IMG/VR virus record: IMGVR_UViG_3300002641_000714
Reading direction: 5' to 3' (one strand)
DNA: 20,800 bases
Source: a virus
Lineage: Duplodnaviria; Heunggongvirae; Uroviricota; Caudoviricetes
The notes beneath the pieces were generated by a model that did no database searches, had not been told where the DNA came from, and saw only the letters and a list, made by a program, of their open reading frames with translations. Below, piece after piece: positions 1 to 20,618 of the stretch (position 1 is its first letter; every line of letters begins with the position of its first letter). Position numbers and translations under genes: made by a program.

Positions 1-38
1 CTAATGCAACTTGGCCTACCGGAGCTAGCGGAATACCA
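1..38 (+). repeat. 38-nt exact direct repeat, copy 1 (copy 2 at 1159-1196)
   Basis: CTAATGCAACTTGGCCTACCGGAGCTAGCGGAATACCA occurs at 1-38 and 1159-1196, in the same reading frame. Confidence 0.95.
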
Positions 39-1226
39 ACAAATTGGACTACTATTTCAACAGCAAATATTATTCAATATAATCCAACTATGTCATTTAC
101 CTCATTAGGATATGTTACATTTACTGCATATGAAAATGATGTATGGTTCGGTTTAATTAATAAATCTACAGATTAGACATTATATTTAAGTAAAGATGGT
201 TTAAACTGGATGACAATACAAGCTCAATAGTTTATTATACTAAATAAAAATGAATCTATTTATGTTTGTGGTATATTAAGTAATAACTAGTCATCAAGTA
301 ATTATACACAATTTGGTATATTTGGCAAAACTAGTGCATCAGGAAATTGTAATACATTATGGAATTATAATGATTTAAATGCAAGTTTAAAACAATATTG
401 TGGATATAAGTTGTTTTATAATTGTTCTAGTTTGACTAGTGCGCCTGAATTACCAGCAACTACATTAACTACTTAGTGTTACTTATAGATGTTTTATAAT
501 TGTTCTAGTTTGACTAGTGCGCCAGCATTGCCAGCAACTACTTTAGCTAGTAGTTGTTACTATGGTATGTTCTGGGGTTGTTCTAGTTTGACTAGTGCAC
601 CTGAATTACCAGCAACTACAATAGCTGAAGGTTGTTACTCTAGTATGTTTTCTAGGTGTTCTAGTTTAACTAGTGCGCCTGAATTACCTGCAACTACTTT
701 AGCTAATAGTTGTTACTATAGTATGTTCTAGAATTGTTCTGGTTTAACTAGTGCGCCTGAATTACCTGCAACTACATTAGCTAGTAGTTGTTACTTATAG
801 ATGTTCTAGAATTGTTCTGGTTTAACTAGTGCGCCTGAATTACCTGCAACTACATTAGCTAGTAGTTGTTACTTATAGATGTTCTAGAATTGTTCTGGTT
901 TAACTAGTGCGCCTGAATTACCTGCAACCAGTTTAGCCATATATTGTTACAACAGTATGTTCCTTGGTTGTTCTAGTTTAACTAGTGCGCCTGAATTACC
1001 TGCAACTACATTAGCTAGTAGTTGTTACTCATAGATGTTCTATGGTTGTTCTAAACTTAGTTATATTAAATGTTTAGCTACTACAGGAATTAATCAAAAT
1101 AATTCAACTGCGAAGTGGGTTTCTGGTGTTGCTTCAACTGGAACATTTGTTAAAGACTCTAATGCAACTTGGCCTACCGGAGCTAGCGGAATACCAGCTA
1201 ACTGGACAGTTCAACCAGCCGCATAA
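1..1226 (+). CDS. BspA-like leucine-rich-repeat surface/virion protein, 5' partial, TAG read as Gln (about 407 aa in window)
   Basis: Frame 3 is open from 3 to TAA at 1224-1226 except for 11 in-frame TAGs (174, 228, 288, 474, 486, 729, 798, 807, 876, 885, 1032). It contains 26-aa repeats CSSLTSAPELPATTLAxxCYxxMFxx. A capping segment (NATWPTGASGIP) occurs at both ends. It joins track ORFs 489-731 and 1035-1226. Confidence 0.88.
423..1058 (+). repeat. 78-bp coding tandem repeat, 8 full units plus a partial ninth
   Basis: Units start at TGTTCT at 423, 501, 579, 657, 735, 813, 891, 969 and 1047. Units 735-812 and 813-890 are identical. Confidence 0.95.
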
Positions 1227-1232
1227 TATAAA

Positions 1233-1272
1233 AATTAAAAGAAGTTTCATTTATATGAGACTTCTTTTAATT
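1233..1272. terminator. Bidirectional terminator-like hairpin between convergent genes
   Basis: AATTAAAAGAAGTTTCAT-ttat-ATGAGACTTCTTTTAATT forms an 18-bp stem with one G-T pair. It overlaps the 3' end of the minus-strand gene. Confidence 0.75.
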
Positions 1273-2756
1273 CCTTCTTGAATACTTATATAATCCATTT
1301 TAATTAAAGGAATACTTTTATTTACTTCCTGCAGCAAATTATCTTTATTTCTTATTTCTGGAATGCATCTATATTTAATATTCTCATTATATTTGCATGC
1401 TTCTTTAGAAAACTCTTCAGTTGTCCATGTTTCTAAATTAACACAATTATATATTCCTCCTTTTAAATTATATCCAAACAACAATCCATTTACTGCATCA
1501 TCTATATATGTAAATGAACTTTTGTTTTGTCCATTATTATACAAAATAGTTTCTTTATCATTTAATAAATGCCATAATAATGTTCCTTCTCTAGGATTTT
1601 TTCCATATACATTATGCAATCTGATGCCTACTGCATCAGGATAATATAATTTTGCATACTCTTCATCAAATTTTTTGCTTAGACCATATAATGAAGTCGT
1701 GTTTGAATCATTTGCAGTGCTTGATGATGCATATACTAATTTTGTTCCATATTTAGAACATAAATCAACAATCTTAACAAAATCTGCAATATTATCTGAC
1801 ACTATTTGCTGATTATCTTCATTAAATACGCTTGTTTGTGCAGCTAAATGATATACACAATCAATTTCTTTCATTGCAAATAAAAATTCAACATATTTTA
1901 CTTCTAATCCTCGTTTTCTGTCAACTTCATAAACAACATTGTTTTGGTCATATTTAAGTTTATTTACTAATTCTTTTCCAATAAATCCATCGCTTCCAGT
2001 TACAATAATATGCTTTTTTGGAATTTTATTAGGAATCATTTTAATAGTTCCATTATTATAAATGTTACAATCTAAAACACCCATTGACTGGAATATTTTA
2101 CAGTCATGATCAATTCCTACAAATCTTTGTTTTGGATCTTTTGAATACTTTGCAAATGCATGACGCAATATAAATTGTTCAGAATTTAACGGATTTGCAA
2201 TATCAATATACTCTAAAGCTTCTTTATAAAACTTAATTAAAGCTTCTCTTTTTCCAATACAACATCCGGCATTAAAATATCGATATACTCCTTTTTGTGT
2301 TCTATTAGGAATAATGTCAATTAATACATCCGGATAGTTGTTACAAGATGGGTTAAACAATATGTCGTAATTAAATCCTTTAAACTTATCTAAAATATCA
2401 TCTAGATGGGTCAATAAAACATCATACCCATCTAAAAATAATATATATGGATGTTTAATCTTTTCTAATAAATTTAAGAAAAATTTAATTTTATTTGGCA
2501 TATACCACTCTTGTGTAGTATCATAATTGTCTGGAACACAATTATATATTGATATATTATTTTTTAAGCATTGTTGCAATAAGCAGCAACTCTGCACATC
2601 GGTCCATGTAGAAATTATTGCAAGCTGATCAAAATCTGCTGGTGTAATTTGTGCATTCTCAAAAATATATTCAAATGTTCTCGGAAGTTGAGATTTATTC
2701 TGTCCATGAAAATGAAGAACATTTGGATAAAAATTATTAAAATTAGTTATTTTCAT
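1251..2756 (-). CDS. Fusion of a PLOD/LH3-type glycosyltransferase domain and an NAD-dependent epimerase/dehydratase (extended SDR), 501 aa
   Basis: The N-half has ILFLDGYDV, YRYFNAGCCIG, EQ and IDHDCKIFQ, like the PLOD GT domain. The C-half has IIVTGSDGFIG (GxxGxxG), HLAA, YASSS, YGLSK (YxxxK) and RLHNVYG. No TAG; ends in TAA. Confidence 0.85.
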   Translation of the reverse strand: MKITNFNNFYPNVLHFHGQNKSQLPRTFEYIFENAQITPADFDQLAIISTWTDVQSCCLLQQCLKNNISIYNCVPDNYDTTQEWYMPNKIKFFLNLLEKIKHPYILFLDGYDVLLTHLDDILDKFKGFNYDILFNPSCNNYPDVLIDIIPNRTQKGVYRYFNAGCCIGKREALIKFYKEALEYIDIANPLNSEQFILRHAFAKYSKDPKQRFVGIDHDCKIFQSMGVLDCNIYNNGTIKMIPNKIPKKHIIVTGSDGFIGKELVNKLKYDQNNVVYEVDRKRGLEVKYVEFLFAMKEIDCVYHLAAQTSVFNEDNQQIVSDNIADFVKIVDLCSKYGTKLVYASSSTANDSNTTSLYGLSKKFDEEYAKLYYPDAVGIRLHNVYGKNPREGTLLWHLLNDKETILYNNGQNKSSFTYIDDAVNGLLFGYNLKGGIYNCVNLETWTTEEFSKEACKYNENIKYRCIPEIRNKDNLLQEVNKSIPLIKMDYISIQEGIKRSLI

Positions 2757-3256: not shown

Positions 3257-3289
3257 AAAGGAACCTAAACTAAGGTTCCTTTAATTTTT
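3257..3289. terminator. Bidirectional intrinsic terminator between the holin-like gene and the tmRNA
   Basis: AAAGGAACCT-aaacta-AGGTTCCTTT is a perfect 10-bp stem with an A-run before and a T-rich run after. Confidence 0.8.
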
Positions 3290-3290
3290 G

Positions 3291-3686
3291 TGGACTCAGT
3301 GGGGATTGAACCCACGTGTTGCATATGTTCCAATCTGCTTTCTACATGTTTAGTTTGATTTGATTTTCGTATATTGCTAAACCTCAAACTGGCCAACAAT
3401 ATCTTAAGCTATTATAGTTTCGAATTTGTTTAATAGCATCACAAATTCTAATATCCAATATTTCTGCACCACTATATCAATTCACCCTTGGATTACGGGA
3501 TTGAGTGATGTATGGAGATTCCGCCTTGCAGAATCTTAAGCTGCCTTACTATACTTCAGATCAAGCTGCCATAGCGTAATTTTCTTCGCCATTTAAATTA
3601 ATTCAAAGAACATTTATTAGACGCATATCTTTATCGCGTCACATGCTTACAAACCAAAATCAATGCAGTCAAAGCCAAATGAGCCC
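3291..3686 (-). ncRNA. ssrA: tmRNA (transfer-messenger RNA), about 396 nt
   Basis: On the minus strand the 5' GGGCTCA pairs with the 3' TGAGTCC, giving a G3-U alanyl determinant and discriminator A. The T-arm is GTGGGTTCAATCCCCAC. The internal tag ORF GGC GAA GAA AAT TAC GCT ATG GCA GCT TGA gives GEENYAMAA. The CCA end is not fully encoded. Confidence 0.93.
3561..3590 (-). other. tmRNA proteolysis-tag reading frame (A)GEENYAMAA-stop
   Basis: Direct translation. It resembles Bacteroidota tags of the GExNYALAA type and ends in TGA. Confidence 0.88.
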
Positions 3687-5855: not shown

Positions 5856-6809
5856 ATGGCGAAATATACAAATAAAAGTAAATTATTGGGCAAGATTGGC
5901 ACTGAAAATTATAGAGTGTCAAATTGCCCAGTACATTTACCTAAAGAAAATATTAAATTCTTTATGGCAATGCAAGATGCCGGAAACAAAGATCCGTTTT
6001 CTTCTGATACATGGGGAAACCAAATTACGCCTGATTGGAAAAAATCTATATATGAATCTATTATGAATAATGTTTCTAAAGAACTTAGAAAAACATTAAA
6101 TGAATCAGAAACATTTGATTTTAATTCAAATAATGCATTAAATGAAGGTTCTTGGGGTTATGAGCCGAATGAAGGAGATAGTGGATTAGATTGCATTGGT
6201 GAAACTAATGATTCTATTTGTGAATTAATTTATGACAAATGTAAAAGAATTTTAAATGGTCGTGGTGATAAATCACAAAAAGCCTGGGATGCAATTGCAG
6301 TTATAGAACATTTCTTTGATAAAATTCCAGATTTGAATACAATTGGCCGTGATAGAAATCCATATTACAAATATTATAGTTGGTGGCAACTTAAACAAGA
6401 TAAAGGAAAAGACATTGTTGATTTGTATCGTCAATGCATTGAAATATGCGAAAATGATCAATGGTATAATGAATGGGATAGTCCAGAAAAAATGGAAGAA
6501 TCTCTCCAAAAACGTCATGAAAATTTAAATAGATATTTAAGATTGAGAAAACGCGCTATTAATGAAGGAGAATGCGGTGGAGAATGCGGCGGTGTCGGAG
6601 GATCATATAATACTCCAATGAATACTGTTGGTATTGGTAATGTAGTTCCAGCACAAGGGGCAGCAATGACAGGTGCTCAATAGGCCTCTGATATGTTTAA
6701 TGGTTCTGGAGATCTTACCATCCCTAAATCTCAGAAGAAATCTAATAAAAAGAAATCTAAAAATTCAGGAATAATTTATTTTCCTTTAGCTACCAAGAAA
6801 GGTATTTAA
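5856..6809 (+). CDS. Hypothetical protein, probable head-associated, 317 aa, one TAG read as Gln
   Basis: Reading through TAG 6681-6683 adds ASDMFNGSGDL...KKGI up to TAA 6807-6809. It contains KKSIYESIM...TLNES, ALNEG and AINEG. Confidence 0.75.
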
Positions 6810-6842
6810 TAAATTAATAATTAAAATAAATTTATTAACCGG

Positions 6843-6864
6843 AATAACTAACATTAGTTATTTT
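6843..6864 (+). terminator. Weak possible terminator hairpin
   Basis: AATAACTA-acat-TAGTTATT followed by TT. The stem is short and AT-rich. Confidence 0.3.
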
Positions 6865-6904
6865 ATGGCAGGTTGAGAAAAAAGTTTTTTGAGTGTTTTT
6901 AATA

Positions 6905-6922
6905 TAAAATAAATAATAAAAT
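6905..6922 (+). promoter_or_regulatory. Putative late-promoter motif variant TAAAATAAATAATAAAAT
   Basis: Identical 18-mer at 6905 and 20601, upstream of ATGs at 6939 and 20654. Confidence 0.5.
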
Positions 6923-6938
6923 TATATTTTTAAACATA

Positions 6939-7289
6939 ATGGAACCAAGAGAAAGAAAAGAAAGAAGTGCATATCCAAATGGTCCAAAAGTCAGTGTAGC
7001 ATCAGTCGATGATGATAGCAATGCAATTGGTCAAGAATTTAATTTGGATAGTGATAATAATGATGAAGATTCTTATTTTGAAGGTGGTGGTTTGCAATTT
7101 GATGATGACGAAGCACCATCTACAGAAGATATCGAAAATGAAAAGAAAGAAGTTGAAAAAATGACAGATGAGGAAATTAAAGTTAAAGCACTTGGTCAGG
7201 CTGTCAATGTAGCAAAGTTAATGTCAAATGTTGGTGTTGACGATGTTATTGAAATCGCTAAGAAACTCGCAAAATTTATTAAAGGATAA
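6939..7289 (+). CDS. Acidic hypothetical protein with a C-terminal 43-aa domain paralogous to 7698-8108, 116 aa
   Basis: Clean ATG-TAA ORF with a D/E-rich tract. C-terminal KMTDEEIK...AKLMS...FIKG. Confidence 0.8.
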   Translation: MEPRERKERSAYPNGPKVSVASVDDDSNAIGQEFNLDSDNNDEDSYFEGGGLQFDDDEAPSTEDIENEKKEVEKMTDEEIKVKALGQAVNVAKLMSNVGVDDVIEIAKKLAKFIKG

Positions 7290-7290
7290 T

Positions 7291-7674
7291 ATGAAAAGTG
7301 ATAACAAAAAAGCTTTATATGAAAGTATTATGACTTCTGTAGCTAAAGAAGTCAAGAAAGCTTTAAATGAAGGTGAAGATAATAATTTTTATGTTGTTAC
7401 ATTCTGGACCGAACCAGAAACTTTAAATATTGAAAATGCTGTATGTGAATTTAGTGGTACATTAGATGAATGTAAAGAAAAAATTAATATACGTCTCAAT
7501 AATTTTAAAAAGCGTGGACTTAAATGTTATGAATTTGATAATAATTTAGGTTTTTATGGAATTTCTTATGGGGTTGGTGATAAATTGCATATAACATTAA
7601 ATAAAATAATGAGTAGCAAGCAGATGAAAAATTTCAATTATTTACGCAATGGAAAAATTAAAAATATCAGATAA
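7291..7674 (+). CDS. Hypothetical protein with N-terminal KKALYESIM...LNEG leader, 127 aa
   Basis: ATG at 7291 lies 1 nt after the upstream TAA, so it is preferred over the track start at 7228. Ends in TAA. Confidence 0.8.
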   Translation: MKSDNKKALYESIMTSVAKEVKKALNEGEDNNFYVVTFWTEPETLNIENAVCEFSGTLDECKEKINIRLNNFKKRGLKCYEFDNNLGFYGISYGVGDKLHITLNKIMSSKQMKNFNYLRNGKIKNIR

Positions 7675-14599: not shown

Positions 14600-14635
14600 A
14601 GAGACAATATTTTAATATATTGTCTCTTTTTGTTT
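14600..14635 (+). terminator. Intrinsic terminator
   Basis: AGAGACAATAT-tttaat-ATATTGTCTCT followed by TTTTGTTTT. Confidence 0.8.
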
Positions 14636-14651
14636 TTATTATGTTTTAATT

Positions 14652-14668
14652 AAAATAAATATAAAAAT
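14652..14668 (+). promoter_or_regulatory. Putative late-promoter motif AAAATAAATATAAAAAT
   Basis: Exact copy of the 17-mer, located between the terminator and the AAA gene ATG. Confidence 0.55.
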
Positions 14669-14706: not shown

Positions 14707-17520
14707 ATGATTTATAACAACTTAAATTTGCCTGCAACTCTTGTGCACAGTGTTAACGGCAAGAAATATACTTTAAATGGAAAATTATTGTCTATTAATG
14801 AATCTACTAAATTAGCTACTATGCAATTTGGTGATAAAACTAATTCAAATATTCCATTAAATGAAGTATACTTGAATGAAGGCGCTCTTAAAGATATGAT
14901 TAGGAAAACCGGAAAGAAACTTAAAGATGCAGCTGTTGCTACATGGAATAAAATTAATGATATCATTAAAATTGTCGGTGGTTTTCTTATTCCGGTAGAT
15001 GAATTCGGCAAAGAATTACGTGAATTTATTAATGCACCTATTAATTTACCGATGATGACATTACCGAGTGCAGTTAAACTTGTTCCCGCAGATGGTGCAT
15101 TAGGTATATGTGATGAATATGGTGCAAGAGTAAGAAATAATTCAACTGTTGATGAAGCCTTTGCACAATCAATGAAGGATGAAAAAGATGAAATTGAAAC
15201 ATATTGGACACGTGTAATGCGTGAATATGCTAATCCTGAAAATGAAAGTTTAACACTTTCAGAAACTGTTAAAATGGTTAATGAAACTTATTATCATCAA
15301 ACAATTGACAGTAAAGTTTTAAATGAAGCTGCAATTCCGTCATTAAATTCTCCATCCGGTTTATATGGTGAAAAACTTGGAACAAAAACATTGGTAAGAA
15401 CACTTATTACAAACTTAAAACACCAATTAAATCCTATTGAAAACCATGAAAGAACCGATGAAGACCTTATTGATCAATTACGTAATGGTACTAATTATGT
15501 AAAACCATTATTGATTTGGGGTGCTCCTGGTATTGGTAAAACCGCTATTCTTAAACAAGCTGCCAAATTCTTAAAAGAAGATGAAGGAATGAATCTTGAT
15601 ATGGTAACAGTTTGTTGCGGCGGTATTAAAACCGATGACTTTGAATTACCAGATACAGCAAGAAATATTATTGGCCGTAAGGTTGCAATTTCAACACCTA
15701 AAACATGGTTGCCTGTAATTAATATTGCAAGTTTAACTGATGAACAATTACTTGAAGCTAATGAATTCTATAACAGTGGTAAATTCCGTATTTTGGCACC
15801 AAATGATGAAACATTAAATAGAACATATAATGATAACGGTGAAACTAAAAAGGCATTTGACTGGAAATCAGTTGGTACTGGTGAAACATTTGACGGCGGC
15901 ATTATTTTCTTTGATGAGTTTGCCCGTTTACGTAATCTTAAAACAATGGATACTATGATGACATTTGTCGGTGATAGAACATATGTTGATATGCCATTGG
16001 CTACTAATTGGGTAACAGTTGCAGCTGCAAACCGTTTATCTGATGACCTTTTAAGTGAGGCTGACCCCGCATTCCACAGTTTATGGGATACTGCAAAACA
16101 ATCACGTTTTACACACTATACATATGCACCGTCAAAAGAAGAATGGCTTGAATGGGCTAGAGATGTTGATGATGATAACTATCAAAATGTTGATGAATTA
16201 ATTTGTAAATTTATTGAAAAGGCGCCAGATGGTGTTTGGTATGATGCACTGGATCTTGGATCTCGTGGTGAAGATGCCATTGAAGGTAGAAATGCCGCAG
16301 TTATTAAAGATATTTTAGCTAAATGGAAGGCAGGTACACCATTAACCGCTAAAGAATTAAAATTATTCGGTACCTATATATCAAATCCTGGTAACTCTAT
16401 TGTAGGTATGACTAATTATACATGGAATGCTCGTACATGGCACCAAAAAATTAATAAAGTTATGTTATCATTATTATTAAATGACTTCTTTAAAGGTGAT
16501 TTTAAAAAGTATGAAGCATGTTTTGATGAAACTACACGTGTTAAGAGTTTATATGGCGGTAAAGGCGCTAAAGAATATACTGCTAAGAATTTAAATATGG
16601 ATAAACTTACAACACAATTAAATAGCATTCCAGATGTATATTGGGATAAAATAACTGATGGTTATTGGCAAAAATTTGATGAAGATCAAAATTTCAGAAA
16701 TAATGATCGTTTGGCATTTTTCTTAGAATGTGTTCAATGGCTTATTCAATCTGAAACCGGCGGTGAAAATAGTGTTCCGTCTCAAGCATGGCACCAATAT
16801 AGAAATATTGATTCAATTATTGAAGATGTTGATGTTCGTACAATTTATGAAAAGGGACAAATGCACTCGGCAAAAGCTGCAAAGCTAGATAATATTTTAT
16901 GTAGTCAATCATCTGGTTATAAAAAGTTTAATGAACTTTCTTGGAAATCTGATCCAACATTATGGGGGGTTGTAGTTGAACGTATTTTAAAATCATTTAA
17001 TGACTATATTACAGCAGAAGATTTATTAACTGATATAAATTCTATTAACCGCAATTTGAAAAATATTGAAAAGGATCCAGAAAAATTCAGTGTAACACAA
17101 AAAGAAATTGATGATTATATAAATGCATATACTATTCAGTTCCTTGATGAATCCAAAAAACCGTTAAAACAAGTTCCAACACTATTAAGTGAAGAACTTG
17201 ATGATGAAGATGATAGAGAAAGAATTATTATTGTATTAAGAAATTCTGGTTGTGCTAGAAAATTGGCAAATATTGCATGCTGGTTTGCTAAACTCGGTAT
17301 TCAAATTAATAATAATTCACCAGTTGATATCGCTTTAGGTACTGGAGAATTTGATAAAAAATTGTCACTTAGAGCACTTCTTGGCACAGTAATTCAAAGT
17401 AATCCGGAGACAAAGAAATACTGGTTTGATGCTGCCAATACAGATGTAGTACAATATGATATACTTAAACCTGCATTAAATATTCTCAATAGTATGAAGA
17501 AAATAAAAAATGAAATATAA
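14707..17520 (+). CDS. AAA+ ATPase (MoxR/AAA_5-like) with long N- and C-terminal extensions, 937 aa
   Basis: Walker A LIWGAPGIGKT, Walker B IIFFDEFAR, sensor-1 VAAANR, SRF and a NARTW motif. The N-terminal extension contains SINES, YLNEG, VNET and VLNEA. No TAG. Confidence 0.88.
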   Translation: MIYNNLNLPATLVHSVNGKKYTLNGKLLSINESTKLATMQFGDKTNSNIPLNEVYLNEGALKDMIRKTGKKLKDAAVATWNKINDIIKIVGGFLIPVDEFGKELREFINAPINLPMMTLPSAVKLVPADGALGICDEYGARVRNNSTVDEAFAQSMKDEKDEIETYWTRVMREYANPENESLTLSETVKMVNETYYHQTIDSKVLNEAAIPSLNSPSGLYGEKLGTKTLVRTLITNLKHQLNPIENHERTDEDLIDQLRNGTNYVKPLLIWGAPGIGKTAILKQAAKFLKEDEGMNLDMVTVCCGGIKTDDFELPDTARNIIGRKVAISTPKTWLPVINIASLTDEQLLEANEFYNSGKFRILAPNDETLNRTYNDNGETKKAFDWKSVGTGETFDGGIIFFDEFARLRNLKTMDTMMTFVGDRTYVDMPLATNWVTVAAANRLSDDLLSEADPAFHSLWDTAKQSRFTHYTYAPSKEEWLEWARDVDDDNYQNVDELICKFIEKAPDGVWYDALDLGSRGEDAIEGRNAAVIKDILAKWKAGTPLTAKELKLFGTYISNPGNSIVGMTNYTWNARTWHQKINKVMLSLLLNDFFKGDFKKYEACFDETTRVKSLYGGKGAKEYTAKNLNMDKLTTQLNSIPDVYWDKITDGYWQKFDEDQNFRNNDRLAFFLECVQWLIQSETGGENSVPSQAWHQYRNIDSIIEDVDVRTIYEKGQMHSAKAAKLDNILCSQSSGYKKFNELSWKSDPTLWGVVVERILKSFNDYITAEDLLTDINSINRNLKNIEKDPEKFSVTQKEIDDYINAYTIQFLDESKKPLKQVPTLLSEELDDEDDRERIIIVLRNSGCARKLANIACWFAKLGIQINNNSPVDIALGTGEFDKKLSLRALLGTVIQSNPETKKYWFDAANTDVVQYDILKPALNILNSMKKIKNEI

Positions 17521-17541
17521 TTTATAATTATATAATTTATG

Positions 17542-17580
17542 AAATAGTGGTAAACAAATTAATTTACCACTATTTTTATT
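17542..17580 (+). terminator. Intrinsic terminator between the AAA and peptidase genes
   Basis: AAATAGTGGTAAA-caaattaa-TTTACCACTATTT is a perfect 13-bp stem followed by TTATT. Confidence 0.8.
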
Positions 17581-17597
17581 TAATTACTTTATTTTAT

Positions 17598-17614
17598 AAA
17601 ATAAATATAAAAAT
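17598..17614 (+). promoter_or_regulatory. Putative late-promoter motif AAAATAAATATAAAAAT
   Basis: Third exact copy, 25 nt upstream of ATG 17640. Confidence 0.55.
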
Positions 17615-17639
17615 TAAAATTTTTATTTTTAATAATAAT

Positions 17640-18518
17640 ATGAATTCTATATTTAACAATAGTAATGATGAAATTGATCAAATAATGCGTGATTAGGCCG
17701 ATAAAACGGAGAAAGCAGTAAATAGCGGATTTGATGTAAGTAAAATTAAAGATGATTATGTTAAATTACGTAACGGCGGTATTGTACATCTTCGCCCGTC
17801 ATGGTTGGCAAACCAAGTTGCATATATGTTAAATGATATGCGAAGCGATGGCGCATATTCATTTATAAAACCGTTTATTATGAAACCTGTAATATGGACA
17901 TATGAAATAGACTCGGCATGTACAGACGGAATCCGTATTTATATGTCACCGTTATTTGCGCATAATATGTTTTTAGCTACTAGTAAAGCTGTTAAAGAAT
18001 ATGAAAATAATGTAACATATGATGAATTATAGGATGAAGAAAAATATACACAAACAAAAAATATTTTAAAAACAAAACTTGTTCGTTTTGTAATTGTTCA
18101 TGAAGTATATCATATTTTATATAATCATGTTAGACGCGGTATATTAAAATACGGTTCCAATGCACCTGCATCAGATCATACATTAGGTAATTATGCAATG
18201 GACCTTGAAATTAACCGTGATATTGAATCTTGTTTTCCGGAATTACGCGGTTCTACTGAAACAATTGACGGTGTTTGGTGGGAAAATGAAAAATTTTATA
18301 GTTCCAAAGGTGAAAAATTTATGCGTGAAATATGGGAAGATATATGGGATGATTGGAAAAATAGCGGTAAATCATTTAGGCAAGAAGATGTATTTAATGA
18401 AGGTGCAAATCCGACACAAAAAAGTAATGCACAAGCAGGCCCGTATGCAGACGGATGGCGTAAAGCTATTGATGCAATTAAAAACAAACAAATAGATCCT
18501 AGAACATTTAATATTTAA
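17640..18518 (+). CDS. Putative metallopeptidase (DUF2201 N-terminal-like), 292 aa, two TAGs read as Gln
   Basis: The frame is continuous through TAG 17694 and 18030. It has SACTDGIRIY, HEVYHILYNHVRR (HExxH...H) and NYAMDLEIN, joining track ORFs 17805-18032 and 18198-18518. Confidence 0.82.
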
Positions 18519-18543
18519 GAAAATATAAAATTTTAATAATTAT

Positions 18544-20559
18544 ATGAAAAATAATTTAACTAAAAGATTAATTGAAGCGAAAACCACTTAGTCTTCGATA
18601 TTATCTGATAAGTATTCAGCAGCATAGTTAAAAAATATTGAAGATATTGTTAAACCATTATTAGATGCAGCAGAATTAACTGCATATAATAATATGTCTG
18701 CTAATGAAAAAGGTGAATATTTATCAGGCTTTGCAGAGAATATTAAAGAATGGCAAAACGCTAAAGAACAAGCAAACAATCCTTAGCAAGGCGGCCAACA
18801 AGGCGGATAGCAAGGAGGCCAACAACCTGATGACGGTTTATCACATTGGAAACCAGCTACAAAATCGTAGGATAGCGATGCTCAAGAATTGGGCAAAAAT
18901 GACAATGCAGTTTTCTCTGATAGTGAAAAGGAACTAGATGATGCAGAAAAAGAAATGCAACAAGCATAGAAAAATGCAAATAATGCAGAAGATATTGCAG
19001 ATTCCGCGCAACAAATTGCTGATGCTGCTCAAAAGGCGGCAGATGCTGCACAGGCTGCGGCTGATCAAGCAAATGAAAATGCAGATAATTCTAAATCTAA
19101 TCAGGATATAGAAAATGCAGATAAAGCACAAGCTGCCGCAGATGCCGCTCAAAAATTAGCTGATGAAGCAAAACAAGCAGCTAATAAAGCTAAACAACTT
19201 GCAGATGAAGCACAAAAAGCTGCAAATGAAGGAAAAACAAAAGAAGCCGGTGGTAAAACACGGGAAGCTATTGAAGCAACCCAAAAAGCTGCAGATAAAG
19301 CAGCAGCTGCACAAATGAATGCAAAAAATGCAATATAGGCTGCTAAACAAACTCAACAAGGCCAACAATCTGGACAACAAGGTAGCCAACCAGGTCAACA
19401 AGGTGGTTAGCAATCTGGTTAGCAATCTGGTCAACAAGGTGGTCAACAGGGTAGTCAATCTGGACAATAGAGTGGTCAACCAGGTAGCCAACAAGGTGGA
19501 TAGCAAGGCAGTCAAGGCAATAATATTGATAATACACCTGATCCAGAATTATAGGAAGTTAATAGTCAATTTGATCCTAATGGTGAAGTTCAGCATGATA
19601 AACCATTTGATACTGAAATAAATTGGGGCGGTAATGATTTCTATGGTGACAGTGAAGAAGCCAGACAAAGATTCAGAGAAATCGCCGAACGTGCAGGTCA
19701 ACCATTAGATGCAGATGATTATTAGTCTCCACAGGAATATGCTGGAAAAAAATATCGTGAAGCAAAAGGTGCTTTATCAAAATGGAAACCTCATGGAAAT
19801 CCTGGAAATTTTGGTAATAAACCTGATGTGTTAGAAGAGGTATTTGCCAGATTATTTGATTCAACATTTGATTGGAAAACCATAGTAGCCAATTTTATGA
19901 CAGTTGAACATCCAGTAGATAAAGAAGATATTTGGGCGAAACGTCGTATGGGCGTTGATAACACACACCCGTTCTATATCGGTAGATATCAACATCCATA
20001 TGAAGAGGATATAGATAAACCTGTCGGATTAGCACAAGTATTTTTCTTAGTTGATGCTTCCGGATCTATGTGGACAGTGGCTGGAGATGGTATTAGTATA
20101 TTTGATCATATTATGTCAGATTTAATTCAAATTGAATTGGATGCTAAGGTACAACGATCTGCATACGCACCATTTACCACTGGCAGTATTTCACGTGATG
20201 ATGTAATAGTATGGACATGGGAAGATGCATAGGACGAAGAATCTCTTCTTGAACAATTTTTATTACCAAAAAATCCCGGAGGAACATCAGCACTTGATGC
20301 AATTAAATCAGTTTAGTCATTTGATGATGTATATAATATGGGAAATCCATAGACATTATTAATTGTTGTAACTGACGGTGAGGATCATTATAATGGATTA
20401 AATGAAATATGTGAAGATCCTAGTCAAGTTGATAATATGTTATGGATTATAACAAATGACAGTGAAAGCAAATTTAATGAAGCGTCAAAAGCATTATAGG
20501 AACAAGGTGTTCCTGATGATCATATTCTCTTTATTAATATTCTTAAAGAGTGGGGATAA
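18544..20559 (+). CDS. vWA-domain protein with Q/G low-complexity tracts and an Ala-rich coiled coil, 671 aa, 17 TAGs read as Gln
   Basis: One frame from ATG 18544 to TAA 20557-20559 interrupted only by TAGs (18589, 18625, 18784, 18808, 18868, 18967, 19336, 19408, 19420, 19468, 19501, 19552, 19723, 20230, 20314, 20350, 20497). MIDAS motifs VDASGS, GGTS and VTDGE. Confidence 0.88.
18784..19518 (+). repeat. Coding low-complexity region: QQGG tract, Ala/Gln/Asp/Lys helical repeat, QQ(G/S)G tract
   Basis: QQGG x3 at 18784-18825, AQKAADAA-like repeats at about 18930-19345, and a Q/G/S tract at 19348-19518. Confidence 0.85.
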
Positions 20560-20600: not shown

Positions 20601-20618
20601 TAAAATAAATAATAAAAT
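20601..20618 (+). promoter_or_regulatory. Putative late-promoter motif variant TAAAATAAATAATAAAAT
   Basis: Identical to 6905-6922, upstream of ATG 20654. Confidence 0.5.

Follow-up and report, generated by a model that had tools for sequence, protein, structure and literature searches.

To our knowledge, the pairing of a MoxR-type AAA+ ATPase with a metallopeptidase-vWA protein ranks among the most frequent unexplained gene sets in large and N4-like phages, and no one has demonstrated its function. Here we ask what this machinery is, and what it may be used for, at a locus in which the peptidase and vWA parts are encoded by separate genes. The locus occupies positions 14,707 to 20,559 of a 20,800-nucleotide stretch of viral DNA (hereafter the window), which is the first 20.8 kb of the 204-kb IMG/VR virus record IMGVR_UViG_3300002641_000714, and consists of three consecutive genes for an ATPase, a peptidase and a vWA adaptor protein. 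We are very confident that these genes form such a module and that the split is natural. The full account that we favour, to which we give somewhat better than an even chance, is that of an old and stable fission of a Lak-like MoxR and metallopeptidase-vWA pair, arranged in two promoter-led units and with a late, head-linked role. The Lak-like clade can be viewed as a natural dissection of the pair, with the peptidase set apart from the adaptor, the ATPase enlarged and a leader on one partner only.

Identity of the three-gene module

The DNA has a GC content of about 29%, and translation with genetic code table 11 breaks many of its frames, leaving within the module the ATPase frame alone open. 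Table 15, in which TAG encodes glutamine, opens the frames and yields three consecutive open reading frames (ORFs) on the plus strand of the module. The only tRNA that ARAGORN calls in the 204-kb record (genome C1:167827-167902, outside the window) has the anticodon CTA and is a candidate amber suppressor, supporting this reading of TAG. Using the ATPase, the peptidase and a fused homologue as tblastn queries against 50,697 phage records, we recovered only 15 Prevotella Lak megaphages, at 30-34% protein identity, and megablast with the 5.9-kb module stretch gave no match in the same records. Because table 15 opens the frames, a CTA tRNA is present and Lak phages are the sole relatives in those records, we place the phage, judging by its sequence, as a Lak-like giant gut megaphage that recodes TAG as glutamine. 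By their predicted frames, the peptidase and vWA genes of the window need TAG to be read in this way.

A preliminary description of this DNA had reported three adjacent genes with intact catalytic motifs, and we found every one of these motifs where it had been placed (Table 1). The catalytic residues do not vary among the homologues compared (29 of the ATPase, 22 of the peptidase and 20 of the vWA protein), and profiles, invariant motifs and predicted folds agree with the proposed identity of the products as a MoxR-type AAA+ protein, a zincin-like peptidase and a vWA protein.

At 937 residues the ATPase is indeed unusually long, its nearest proteins in a viral structure library having 350-520. 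An AlphaFold2 (AF2) model built on 29 homologues (mean predicted local distance difference test score, pLDDT, 77.6) describes a core of the MoxR class flanked by two extensions that are conserved in the family, one of about 207 residues at the N-terminus and a helical one of about 380 residues at the C-terminus. The class assignment draws on this predicted model and on a second look at the Foldseek list with VIA-align, in which the whole 937-residue model served as query. The best fold matches of the core were CbbQ2 (6l1q; Z 12.3, 244 residues aligned, root-mean-square deviation 4.0) and NorQ (9qh8/9qh4; Z 11.2-12.0), and the next AAA+ clades, of the ClpB/ClpC/Rpt type, followed at Z of about 10.2, some two units under the MoxR class; plain Foldseek with the same model returned an unordered mix of AAA+ clades. 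On the model, DSSP assigns a beta-hairpin at residues 313-331 past strand 2 and strands at 429-431 and 435-441 ahead of sensor 1, which by their position along the model are candidates for the helix-2 insert and pre-sensor-1 beta-hairpin of the MoxR class. In addition to the Walker motifs, A440-x-N442-R443 is invariant in the 29 homologues. The closest entries in the viral structure library were "dynein-related" or MoxR-like ATPases of PBS1, G and phiRSL1 and the "Gp24-like protein" of RaK2, which account for the length range given above. Among sequence profiles, PHROG 1297 ("ATPase") matches the window protein at E 8.7e-21, and Pfam AAA_5 matches eight of eight orthologues at E <= 0.01 (best 1.2e-7). 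A point against the assignment is that AAA_5 reaches 19.7 bits on the window protein itself, under its cut-off of 22; Pfam AAA_3 does not match this protein, and a PDB sequence search with it gave generic P-loop matches only. Searches with the whole model and with sequence features named no relative of either extension, neither of which was folded or searched alone.

The peptidase is, from its sequence, a zincin-like metallopeptidase with putative activity. Residues H154, E155, H158, H163, N184, D188 and E190-D194 are invariant in 22 sequences, and the protein passes the Pfam DUF2201_N (PF13203) threshold marginally (23.6 bits, cut-off 23.2), a match that several homologues carry as a precomputed annotation. 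It also matches PHROG 1314 at E 2.5e-16. We rejected the label of that family, "HNH endonuclease", as a misnomer, since the matched region is the HExxH peptidase domain. A PDB sequence search, which included the fused protein, found no solved structure for the family. The longest peptidase ORF begins at GTG 17547; because this codon lies inside a hairpin and all homologues begin with M-(S/N)-S-I-F, the true start is ATG 17640.

The third protein ends in what its predicted structure identifies as a vWA fold with a metal ion-dependent adhesion site (MIDAS). In an AF2 model of residues 340-671, model residues 160-332 have pLDDT of about 75-90, and the PDB matches listed by Foldseek for this model are almost all vWA or integrin I domains, with probability 1.0 and a template modelling (TM) score of about 0.5-0.56 normalised by target. 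No vWA-type profile (Pfam VWA, DUF2201 PF09967, PHROG, NCBIfam) matched the window protein or eight orthologues. The long coiled-coil and low-complexity arm that had been described is present, differs in length among relatives and is joined to the vWA domain by a helical region. The domain between the leader and the arm has no detectable counterpart in fused homologues (hhalign probability about 1%).

Fission of the peptidase-vWA gene

DUF2201-type proteins had been said usually to carry both domains in one chain, and this is what Lak-A/B phages have: behind the ATPase gene, Lak-A1, Lak-B2 and IMG/VR contigs related to them have one ORF of 851-855 residues comprising the peptidase domain, a Q/G/S-rich linker and the vWA domain. 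In the window, as had also been noticed, they are separate genes, the first closed by TAA at 18516-18518 and the second opened by ATG at 18544, with the ORFs in different frames. The fused state in Lak-A/B/C, together with two window ORFs in different frames only 25 nucleotides apart, is what would be expected of an artefact in a gene that is normally fused, whether from a frameshift in assembly, an error in sequencing or a recent nonsense mutation. The decision between these views comes from relatives. A related-locus search retrieved none with the single ATPase protein and worked only with an alignment as query. Seven diverged relatives, at 33-55% protein identity to the window, share the ATPase gene, the peptidase gene and a gene in the vWA position: L004 (a 263-kb IMG/VR contig), L012 (470 kb), L014 (491 kb), L015, L016, L022 (a curated 660-kb genome) and L023, in which the vWA-position gene is cut by the contig end. 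A check on co-conservation found the module genes kept together in every relative examined.

In the window and the four relatives measured, the gap between the peptidase and vWA genes is 25, 31, -14, 35 or 47 nucleotides, and the relative frame differs between lineages. We also considered a programmed frameshift across 18516-18544 and rejected it, since relatives differ in gap and frame and the two genes of one pair overlap by 14 nucleotides. Because gaps and frames vary in this manner across diverged lineages, sequencing error, recent nonsense mutation and a conserved programmed frameshift are excluded. The split vWA genes all have their own Met, most of them with a basic leader, and an N-terminal domain not seen in fused forms, and the split peptidases all end in a conserved C-terminal motif. 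Independent assemblies share the split with differing gaps and frames, and the split order is present in the curated genome.

The phylogeny points in the same direction. When 1.84 billion representative proteins were searched with the peptidase profile, 326 belonged to the family, including 53 with E <= 1e-30; of these, roughly half have 230-365 residues and roughly half have 490-1133 residues and a C-terminal D-x-S-G-S motif. In a maximum-likelihood tree built from the peptidase domain, a branch separates the 17 stand-alone representatives around the window from the rest (ultrafast bootstrap 85, SH-aLRT 88), a single change between the fused and split states is found in 88% of bootstrap trees and the nearest outgroups consist of fused proteins. 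The short sequences that are scattered through fused clades resemble truncated gene calls. The simplest reading of these sequences, with moderate support, is one ancient fission of a fused ancestor. With the stand-alone peptidases forming one clade, the artefact is already refuted by the comparative sequence data, and we leave it practically no chance.

The two clades also differ in their use of TAG. In the split clade the ATPase gene has 0-3 TAG codons, the peptidase gene 2-5 and the vWA gene 12-32. In Lak-A/B (L005, L008, L010) the counts are 5-10 for the ATPase gene and 0-1 for the fused gene, even though the latter is Gln-rich, with about 76 Gln codons. The TAG load is therefore reversed between the split clade and Lak-A/B. 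As predicted from the sequences, every lineage has at least one module part that would not be translatable unless TAG is read as Gln, and which part this is differs.

Transcription units, leaders and a possible role at the head

Exact copies of a 17-nucleotide promoter-like motif, AAAATAAATATAAAAAT, stand ahead of the ATPase and peptidase genes, and terminator-like hairpins lie before and after the ATPase gene. Hairpins and motifs placed in this way delimit two units, one with the ATPase gene and the other with the peptidase and vWA genes. No 17-mer was found ahead of the vWA gene, and because its ATG lies 25 nucleotides past the peptidase stop with no motif between, the two genes are probably co-transcribed. 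Genome-wide the motif has five exact copies, and 23 copies with at most two mismatches compared with 0-12 (mean about 6) in simulated sequence; most matches are correctly oriented and lie 13-40 nucleotides ahead of a start codon, and a variant with two mismatches lies 4 nucleotides upstream of the major head gene. A close variant is found 5' of the ATPase gene in six of the seven lineages shown, L004 being less clear, and the motif and hairpins recur at equivalent places in relatives, Lak-A/B included. Both units had been credited with late-type promoter motifs. The motif part of this claim holds, with the exact 17-mer occurring twice, while "late" is plausible from the sequence but not shown.

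Fused proteins start with a basic leader followed by a hydrophobic-x-Glu motif, often [LIV]NE, directly before the peptidase domain, and in the split clade such a leader belongs to the vWA gene instead of the peptidase gene. Among the first 25 residues, hydrophobic-x-Glu occurs in 22 of 24 fused proteins and 19 of 25 split vWA proteins, compared with 5 of 26 split peptidases and 9 of 45 ATPases, and [LIV]NE occurs in 10 of the fused proteins and 6 of the split vWA proteins (background per segment 0.30-0.47 for hydrophobic-x-Glu and 0.00-0.02 for [LIV]NE, 0.10 in ATPases). Several relatives have ...PLNET where the leader of the window vWA protein ends. In the ATPase, the xNE-rich leader that had been described corresponds to five [LIV]NE motifs in residues 1-207 and none in the other 730; the genome as a whole has 134 in about 60,700 residues, or roughly 0.5 expected per 207. 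Two of the five are conserved in 29 homologues down to 24% identity, and the second of these ends a predicted disordered linker directly before the AAA+ core (Table 1).

Across the genome [LIV]NE is 1.7 times over-represented, and its density peaks about fivefold at protein residues 20-30. A leader of about 27 residues, MK-x-DNKKALYESIMTSVAKEVKK-x-LNE, with LNE at residue 25-27, is common to more than 15 otherwise unrelated proteins and looks from its sequence like a portable capsid-targeting or cleavage propeptide. The major head protein (genome C1:57433-59352, minus strand; phrog_138, E 1.3e-30) has a 19-residue leader that ends in INE and is followed by AWAP, and leaders of the hydrophobic-x-Glu or [LIV]NE kind are present on the vWA protein and on the product of the downstream gene, which starts MRRKLNEG. 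An S77 (T4 gp21-type) protease scores above the Pfam cut-off in Lak-B2 (56 bits) and in the L004 genome (57.4 bits). In T4, short N-terminal capsid targeting sequences (CTS) are removed by gp21, and giant-phage proteases cleave after the Glu of a short motif, often at several sites in a propeptide (PMC9026906). In the archaeal Acidianus two-tailed virus (ATV), the MoxR protein p618 is a major component of the virion, and the vWA protein p892 is its binding partner (PMC4124505). As separate observations, members of the 27-residue leader family are encoded at 7291-7374 of the window and at genome positions 69420, 70051, 72757, 90050, 91982, 92695, 93158, 122247 and others, and a 317-residue protein encoded at 89069-90022 has a similar ...VNE AWAA start.

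By analogy with better-known systems, the ATPase may be inferred to form a hexameric ring with ATPase activity that binds the vWA partner. The vWA domain would dock on this ring, as in CbbQ/CbbO and NorQ/NorD, and its MIDAS metal site would hold a target through an acidic group. In the NorQ-NorD pair, the vWA domain inserts a finger into the central pore of the ring-shaped ATPase, which remodels a linker in the vWA protein (PMC13036017). In the phage module, an ATP-driven ring might similarly pull on the vWA protein and its long arm, so that the target is remodelled, and the zincin peptidase, held non-covalently since the fission, could cut the exposed target or the adaptor. The most likely role of the module would be a late one, in the morphogenesis or maturation of the head. 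The prohead may recruit the vWA protein, which a gp21-type prohead protease might then trim, perhaps together with the ATPase, and part of the machine might remain in the virion. From the sequences, a head-linked role of the module is a tentative proposal to which we give rather less than an even chance.

Several observations weigh against it. None of the 26 split peptidases or 45 ATPases has [LIV]NE in its first 25 residues, so that the vWA protein would be the sole carrier if the leader is a targeting tag. Within the ATPase, VNE 191-193 and LNE 56-58 vary among homologues, and the conserved LNE motifs could be structural instead. An S77 protease was not found in the 204-kb record that contains the window (41% complete according to CheckV), and the neighbour genes in the window have no recognisable structural function. 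TAG is present in 11 of 16 genes behind the motif compared with 41% genome-wide (p = 0.03), a modest difference that is confounded by gene length. In N4-like phages the homologous pair is surrounded by genes of DNA metabolism and not by structural ones: RG-2014 has dUTPase and thymidylate synthase genes next to its AAA gene (33) and its vWA/DUF2201_N gene (36).

This setting among DNA-metabolism genes, the neighbours in the window and the missing N-terminal leaders of ATPase and peptidase also speak for an unpackaged cytoplasmic machine that remodels or cleaves host or phage replication proteins during infection, with Lys-rich leaders that merely reflect translation or solubility in an AT-rich genome and LNE motifs that are structural. 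For the N4 gp24/gp25-type pair, which lies among middle genes, such a role is assumed; the RaK2 Gp24-like protein and the PBS1, G and phiRSL1 ATPases are likewise among the nearest viral structural relatives of the window ATPase. However, the peptidase and vWA genes need TAG to be read as Gln, and a variant of the module's motif also precedes the major head gene. [LIV]NE at the N-termini of fused and vWA proteins is about 20 times background or more, for which a Lys-rich codon bias offers no explanation, and the invariant residues N206 and E207 lie within a predicted disordered linker. We regard the cytoplasmic machine as unlikely, although it is the strongest of the competing explanations.

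The head-linked proposal can be taken further, to a head-targeted and possibly injected, ATP-dependent capture-and-cut machine. Here the leader would carry the vWA protein, with bound peptidase and ATPase, into the prohead, where a gp21-type protease would remove the leader and cut the ATPase at LNE(207), freeing its N-terminal domain; the matured complex might remodel the head core or exit with the DNA, and the fission would have put the adaptor alone under the targeting signal. The preliminary description had raised delivery in the virion or injection, which may be inferred from the sequences but is unproven, and we consider the extended machine doubtful. If the complex is ejected, host proteins could be its targets at a time when no TAG-recoded phage gene is yet translatable. 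If packaging is true, a giant phage would carry an ATP-driven protease system in its head, and if it is false, the module would be a late chaperone and protease of the ordinary kind that the literature has already proposed.

Least convincing among the functional alternatives is a vWA-MoxR-type conflict system for counter-defence or superinfection exclusion, which would sense a foreign protein through its vWA domain and MIDAS and destroy it; ternary vWA-MoxR systems are described as such (PMC7159879), the arm is variable in length among relatives and vWA residues 5-72 give a weak Pfam VMAP-M14 match (E 0.037), yet this match has 14.3 bits against a cut-off of 27, PADLOC gave no meaningful match (best E about 0.009), nor did an NCBIfam scan, no effector domain is present besides the peptidase, and the module keeps one site and the same neighbours in Lak-like genomes 50-75% apart in protein sequence, a pattern of core equipment and not of a mobile defence island, so that we think this highly improbable.

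A candidate match that we set aside and did not use as evidence is that of Pfam phiKZ_IP (phiKZ-like internal head proteins) to residues 41-88 of the L004 ATPase (7121-7264), at 20.7 bits against a cut-off of 27 (E 2.7e-4). L015 has a weaker match at the equivalent place, and the window ATPase has none.

Known counterparts and neighbouring features

The preliminary description knew of no functional account of such an arrangement, and this proved incorrect: Iyer, Anantharaman, Krishnan, Burroughs and Aravind (2021; PMC7824862, section 3.4.5) describe, for group 2.2 jumbo phages, a MoxR AAA+ protein paired with a metallopeptidase-vWA protein and suggest that the pair takes part in virion assembly, with structural proteins being processed by proteolysis. 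The module type and this proposed role are therefore already in print for jumbo phages. The jumbo-phage pair resembles the present module in having the same three domains in adjacent genes with the ATPase first, intact Walker, HExxH and MIDAS motifs and very large phages as carriers. N4-like phages have the same pair as PHROG 1297 and PHROG 1314, the latter with DUF2201_N and vWA. In contrast to the jumbo and N4-like pairs, peptidase and vWA are unfused here, with adjacency kept; the window ATPase is two to three times longer, with conserved N- and C-terminal extensions, and the vWA protein is distinguished by an N-terminal domain particular to its clade and by its arm of about 230 residues. 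Sequence similarity to cultured phages is seen by profiles only, tblastn yielding Lak phages alone.

The unannotated Lak-A1, Lak-B2 and Lak-C1 genomes (MK250016, MK250021 and others) are much closer, with a full-length ATPase at 30-34% identity that has all domains and N-terminal motifs, the same downstream M-(K/R)-R-K-L-N-E gene, the promoter-like motif, the hairpins and TAG read as Gln. Lak-A/B/C differ in the single fused protein of 851-855 residues, the reversed TAG load and an extra 207-residue gene after it. Beyond these phages, CbbQ/CbbO and NorQ/NorD (6l1q, 9qh4-9qhg) provide the best structures for the ATPase core and have a vWA partner with a MIDAS, and in NorQD the linker of the vWA partner is the remodelled element (PMC13036017). 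Unlike the phage module, they activate or metallate a cellular enzyme, lack a peptidase and have ATPases of about 260 residues, and a PDB sequence search detected no sequence-level relation of CbbQ or NorQ to the window ATPase. ATV p618/p892, compared at the family level, is a viral MoxR-vWA pair with its ATPase in the virion and in morphogenesis (PMC4124505), but belongs to an archaeal virus and has no peptidase. The T4 CTS and gp21 substrates share with the present case short leaders ending in hydrophobic-x-Glu, an S77 gene (here in relatives) and multi-site candidate propeptides, and differ in that the Lak-like motif preference is [LIV]-N-E, known here from sequence alone. In the literature searched we found no match for the clade-wide fission with a leader on the adaptor gene, for an ATPase extended to this degree, whose predicted disordered linker has an invariant LNE, for the new N-terminal domain of the adaptor or for the reversed TAG load between clades.

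Table 1. Positions of the module genes, their domains and motifs and the flanking signals in the window.
Feature	Position	Strand	Remarks
Terminator-like hairpin	14600..14627	+	3' of DUF6734 gene; 11-pair stem, then T run
Promoter-like motif AAAATAAATATAAAAAT	14652..14668	+	38 nucleotides upstream of ATPase start
ATPase gene	14707..17520	+	Predicted MoxR-class AAA+; 937 residues; 0 in-frame TAG
N-terminal extension, residues 1-207	14707..15327	+	Small beta-rich domain, helices, predicted disordered linker 196-207
INE 30-32 of ATPase	14794-14802	+	N31-E32 invariant or nearly so
LNE 205-207 of ATPase	15319-15327	+	N206 and E207 invariant in 29 homologues
AAA+ core and lid, about residues 225-560	15379..16386	+	Long insert between Walker A and Walker B
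Walker A GAPGIGKT	15520-15543	+	Invariant in 29 homologues
Walker B IIFFDE	15901-15918	+	D403-E404 invariant in 29 homologues
C-terminal extension, residues 561-937	16387..17517	+	Mostly helical, confidently modelled, family-conserved
Terminator-like hairpin	17541..17576	+	Between ATPase and peptidase genes; similar at equivalent place in relatives
Promoter-like motif AAAATAAATATAAAAAT, second exact copy	17598..17614	+	25 nucleotides upstream of peptidase start
Peptidase gene	17640..18518	+	Stand-alone, zincin-like, DUF2201_N type; 292 residues; 2 TAG
HEVYHILYNH of peptidase	18099-18128	+	HExxH-x4-H
NYAMDLEINRD of peptidase	18189-18221	+	N-x3-D-x-E-I-N-R-D
vWA adaptor gene	18544..20559	+	671 residues; 17 TAG; intact MIDAS
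Leader MKNNLTKRLIEA	18544..18579	+	12 residues, basic, ends hydrophobic-x-Glu
Split-clade N-terminal domain, about residues 20-105 (about 85 residues)	18601..18858	+	Invariant Y-x-x-G-F and P-x-D-G-L-x-H-W
Low-complexity/coiled-coil arm, about 230 residues	18859..19560	+	(GQQ)n arrays, Ala/Gln heptads, 21-nucleotide (heptad) repeat
vWA domain (predicted)	20026..20556	+	Complete MIDAS, residues invariant
MIDAS DASGS, D504-x-S506-x-S508	20053-20067	+	Invariant
MIDAS T581 (Thr of GGT)	20284-20286	+	Invariant
MIDAS D611 (Asp of TDG)	20374-20376	+	Invariant
Promoter-like variant, 2 mismatches	20602..20618	+	Upstream of downstream gene (start 20654)

The upstream neighbour of the ATPase gene is a DUF6734 gene, and in L004, the closest large relative, an extra ORF of 205 residues with 5 TAG (6336-6953) lies between the two. 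A gene of about 610-735 residues starting M-(K/R)-R-K-L-N-E is always found 3' of the module (window 20654 onward; L004 13194-15227; L005 13165-15372). In the window this syntenic gene, which starts MRRKLNEG, runs beyond the end of the stretch; the gene has its own promoter-like motif and six [LIV]NE, with no Pfam or PHROG match. The extra 207-residue gene of Lak-A/B, located between the fused and downstream genes (L005 12481-13104, likewise L008 and L010), has a weak cytidylyltransferase-like match (E 0.005, below cut-off).

Elsewhere in the window, a phage-encoded tmRNA lies on the minus strand at 3288-3686 (Rfam RF00023, 79.8 bits, gathering threshold 47, full length); ARAGORN agrees and gives a tag peptide. 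A TAG-free gene of 501 residues at 1251-2756 (minus strand) resembles in its C-terminal half a nucleotide-sugar epimerase (phrog_540, E 3.4e-41). Finally, a 5'-open ORF at 3-1226 (plus strand) with 11 in-frame TAG encodes Cys/Ser-rich repeats of about 23 residues (...CSSLTSAPELPATTL...) and matches part of the long phage family phrog_9915 (E 2.9e-15).

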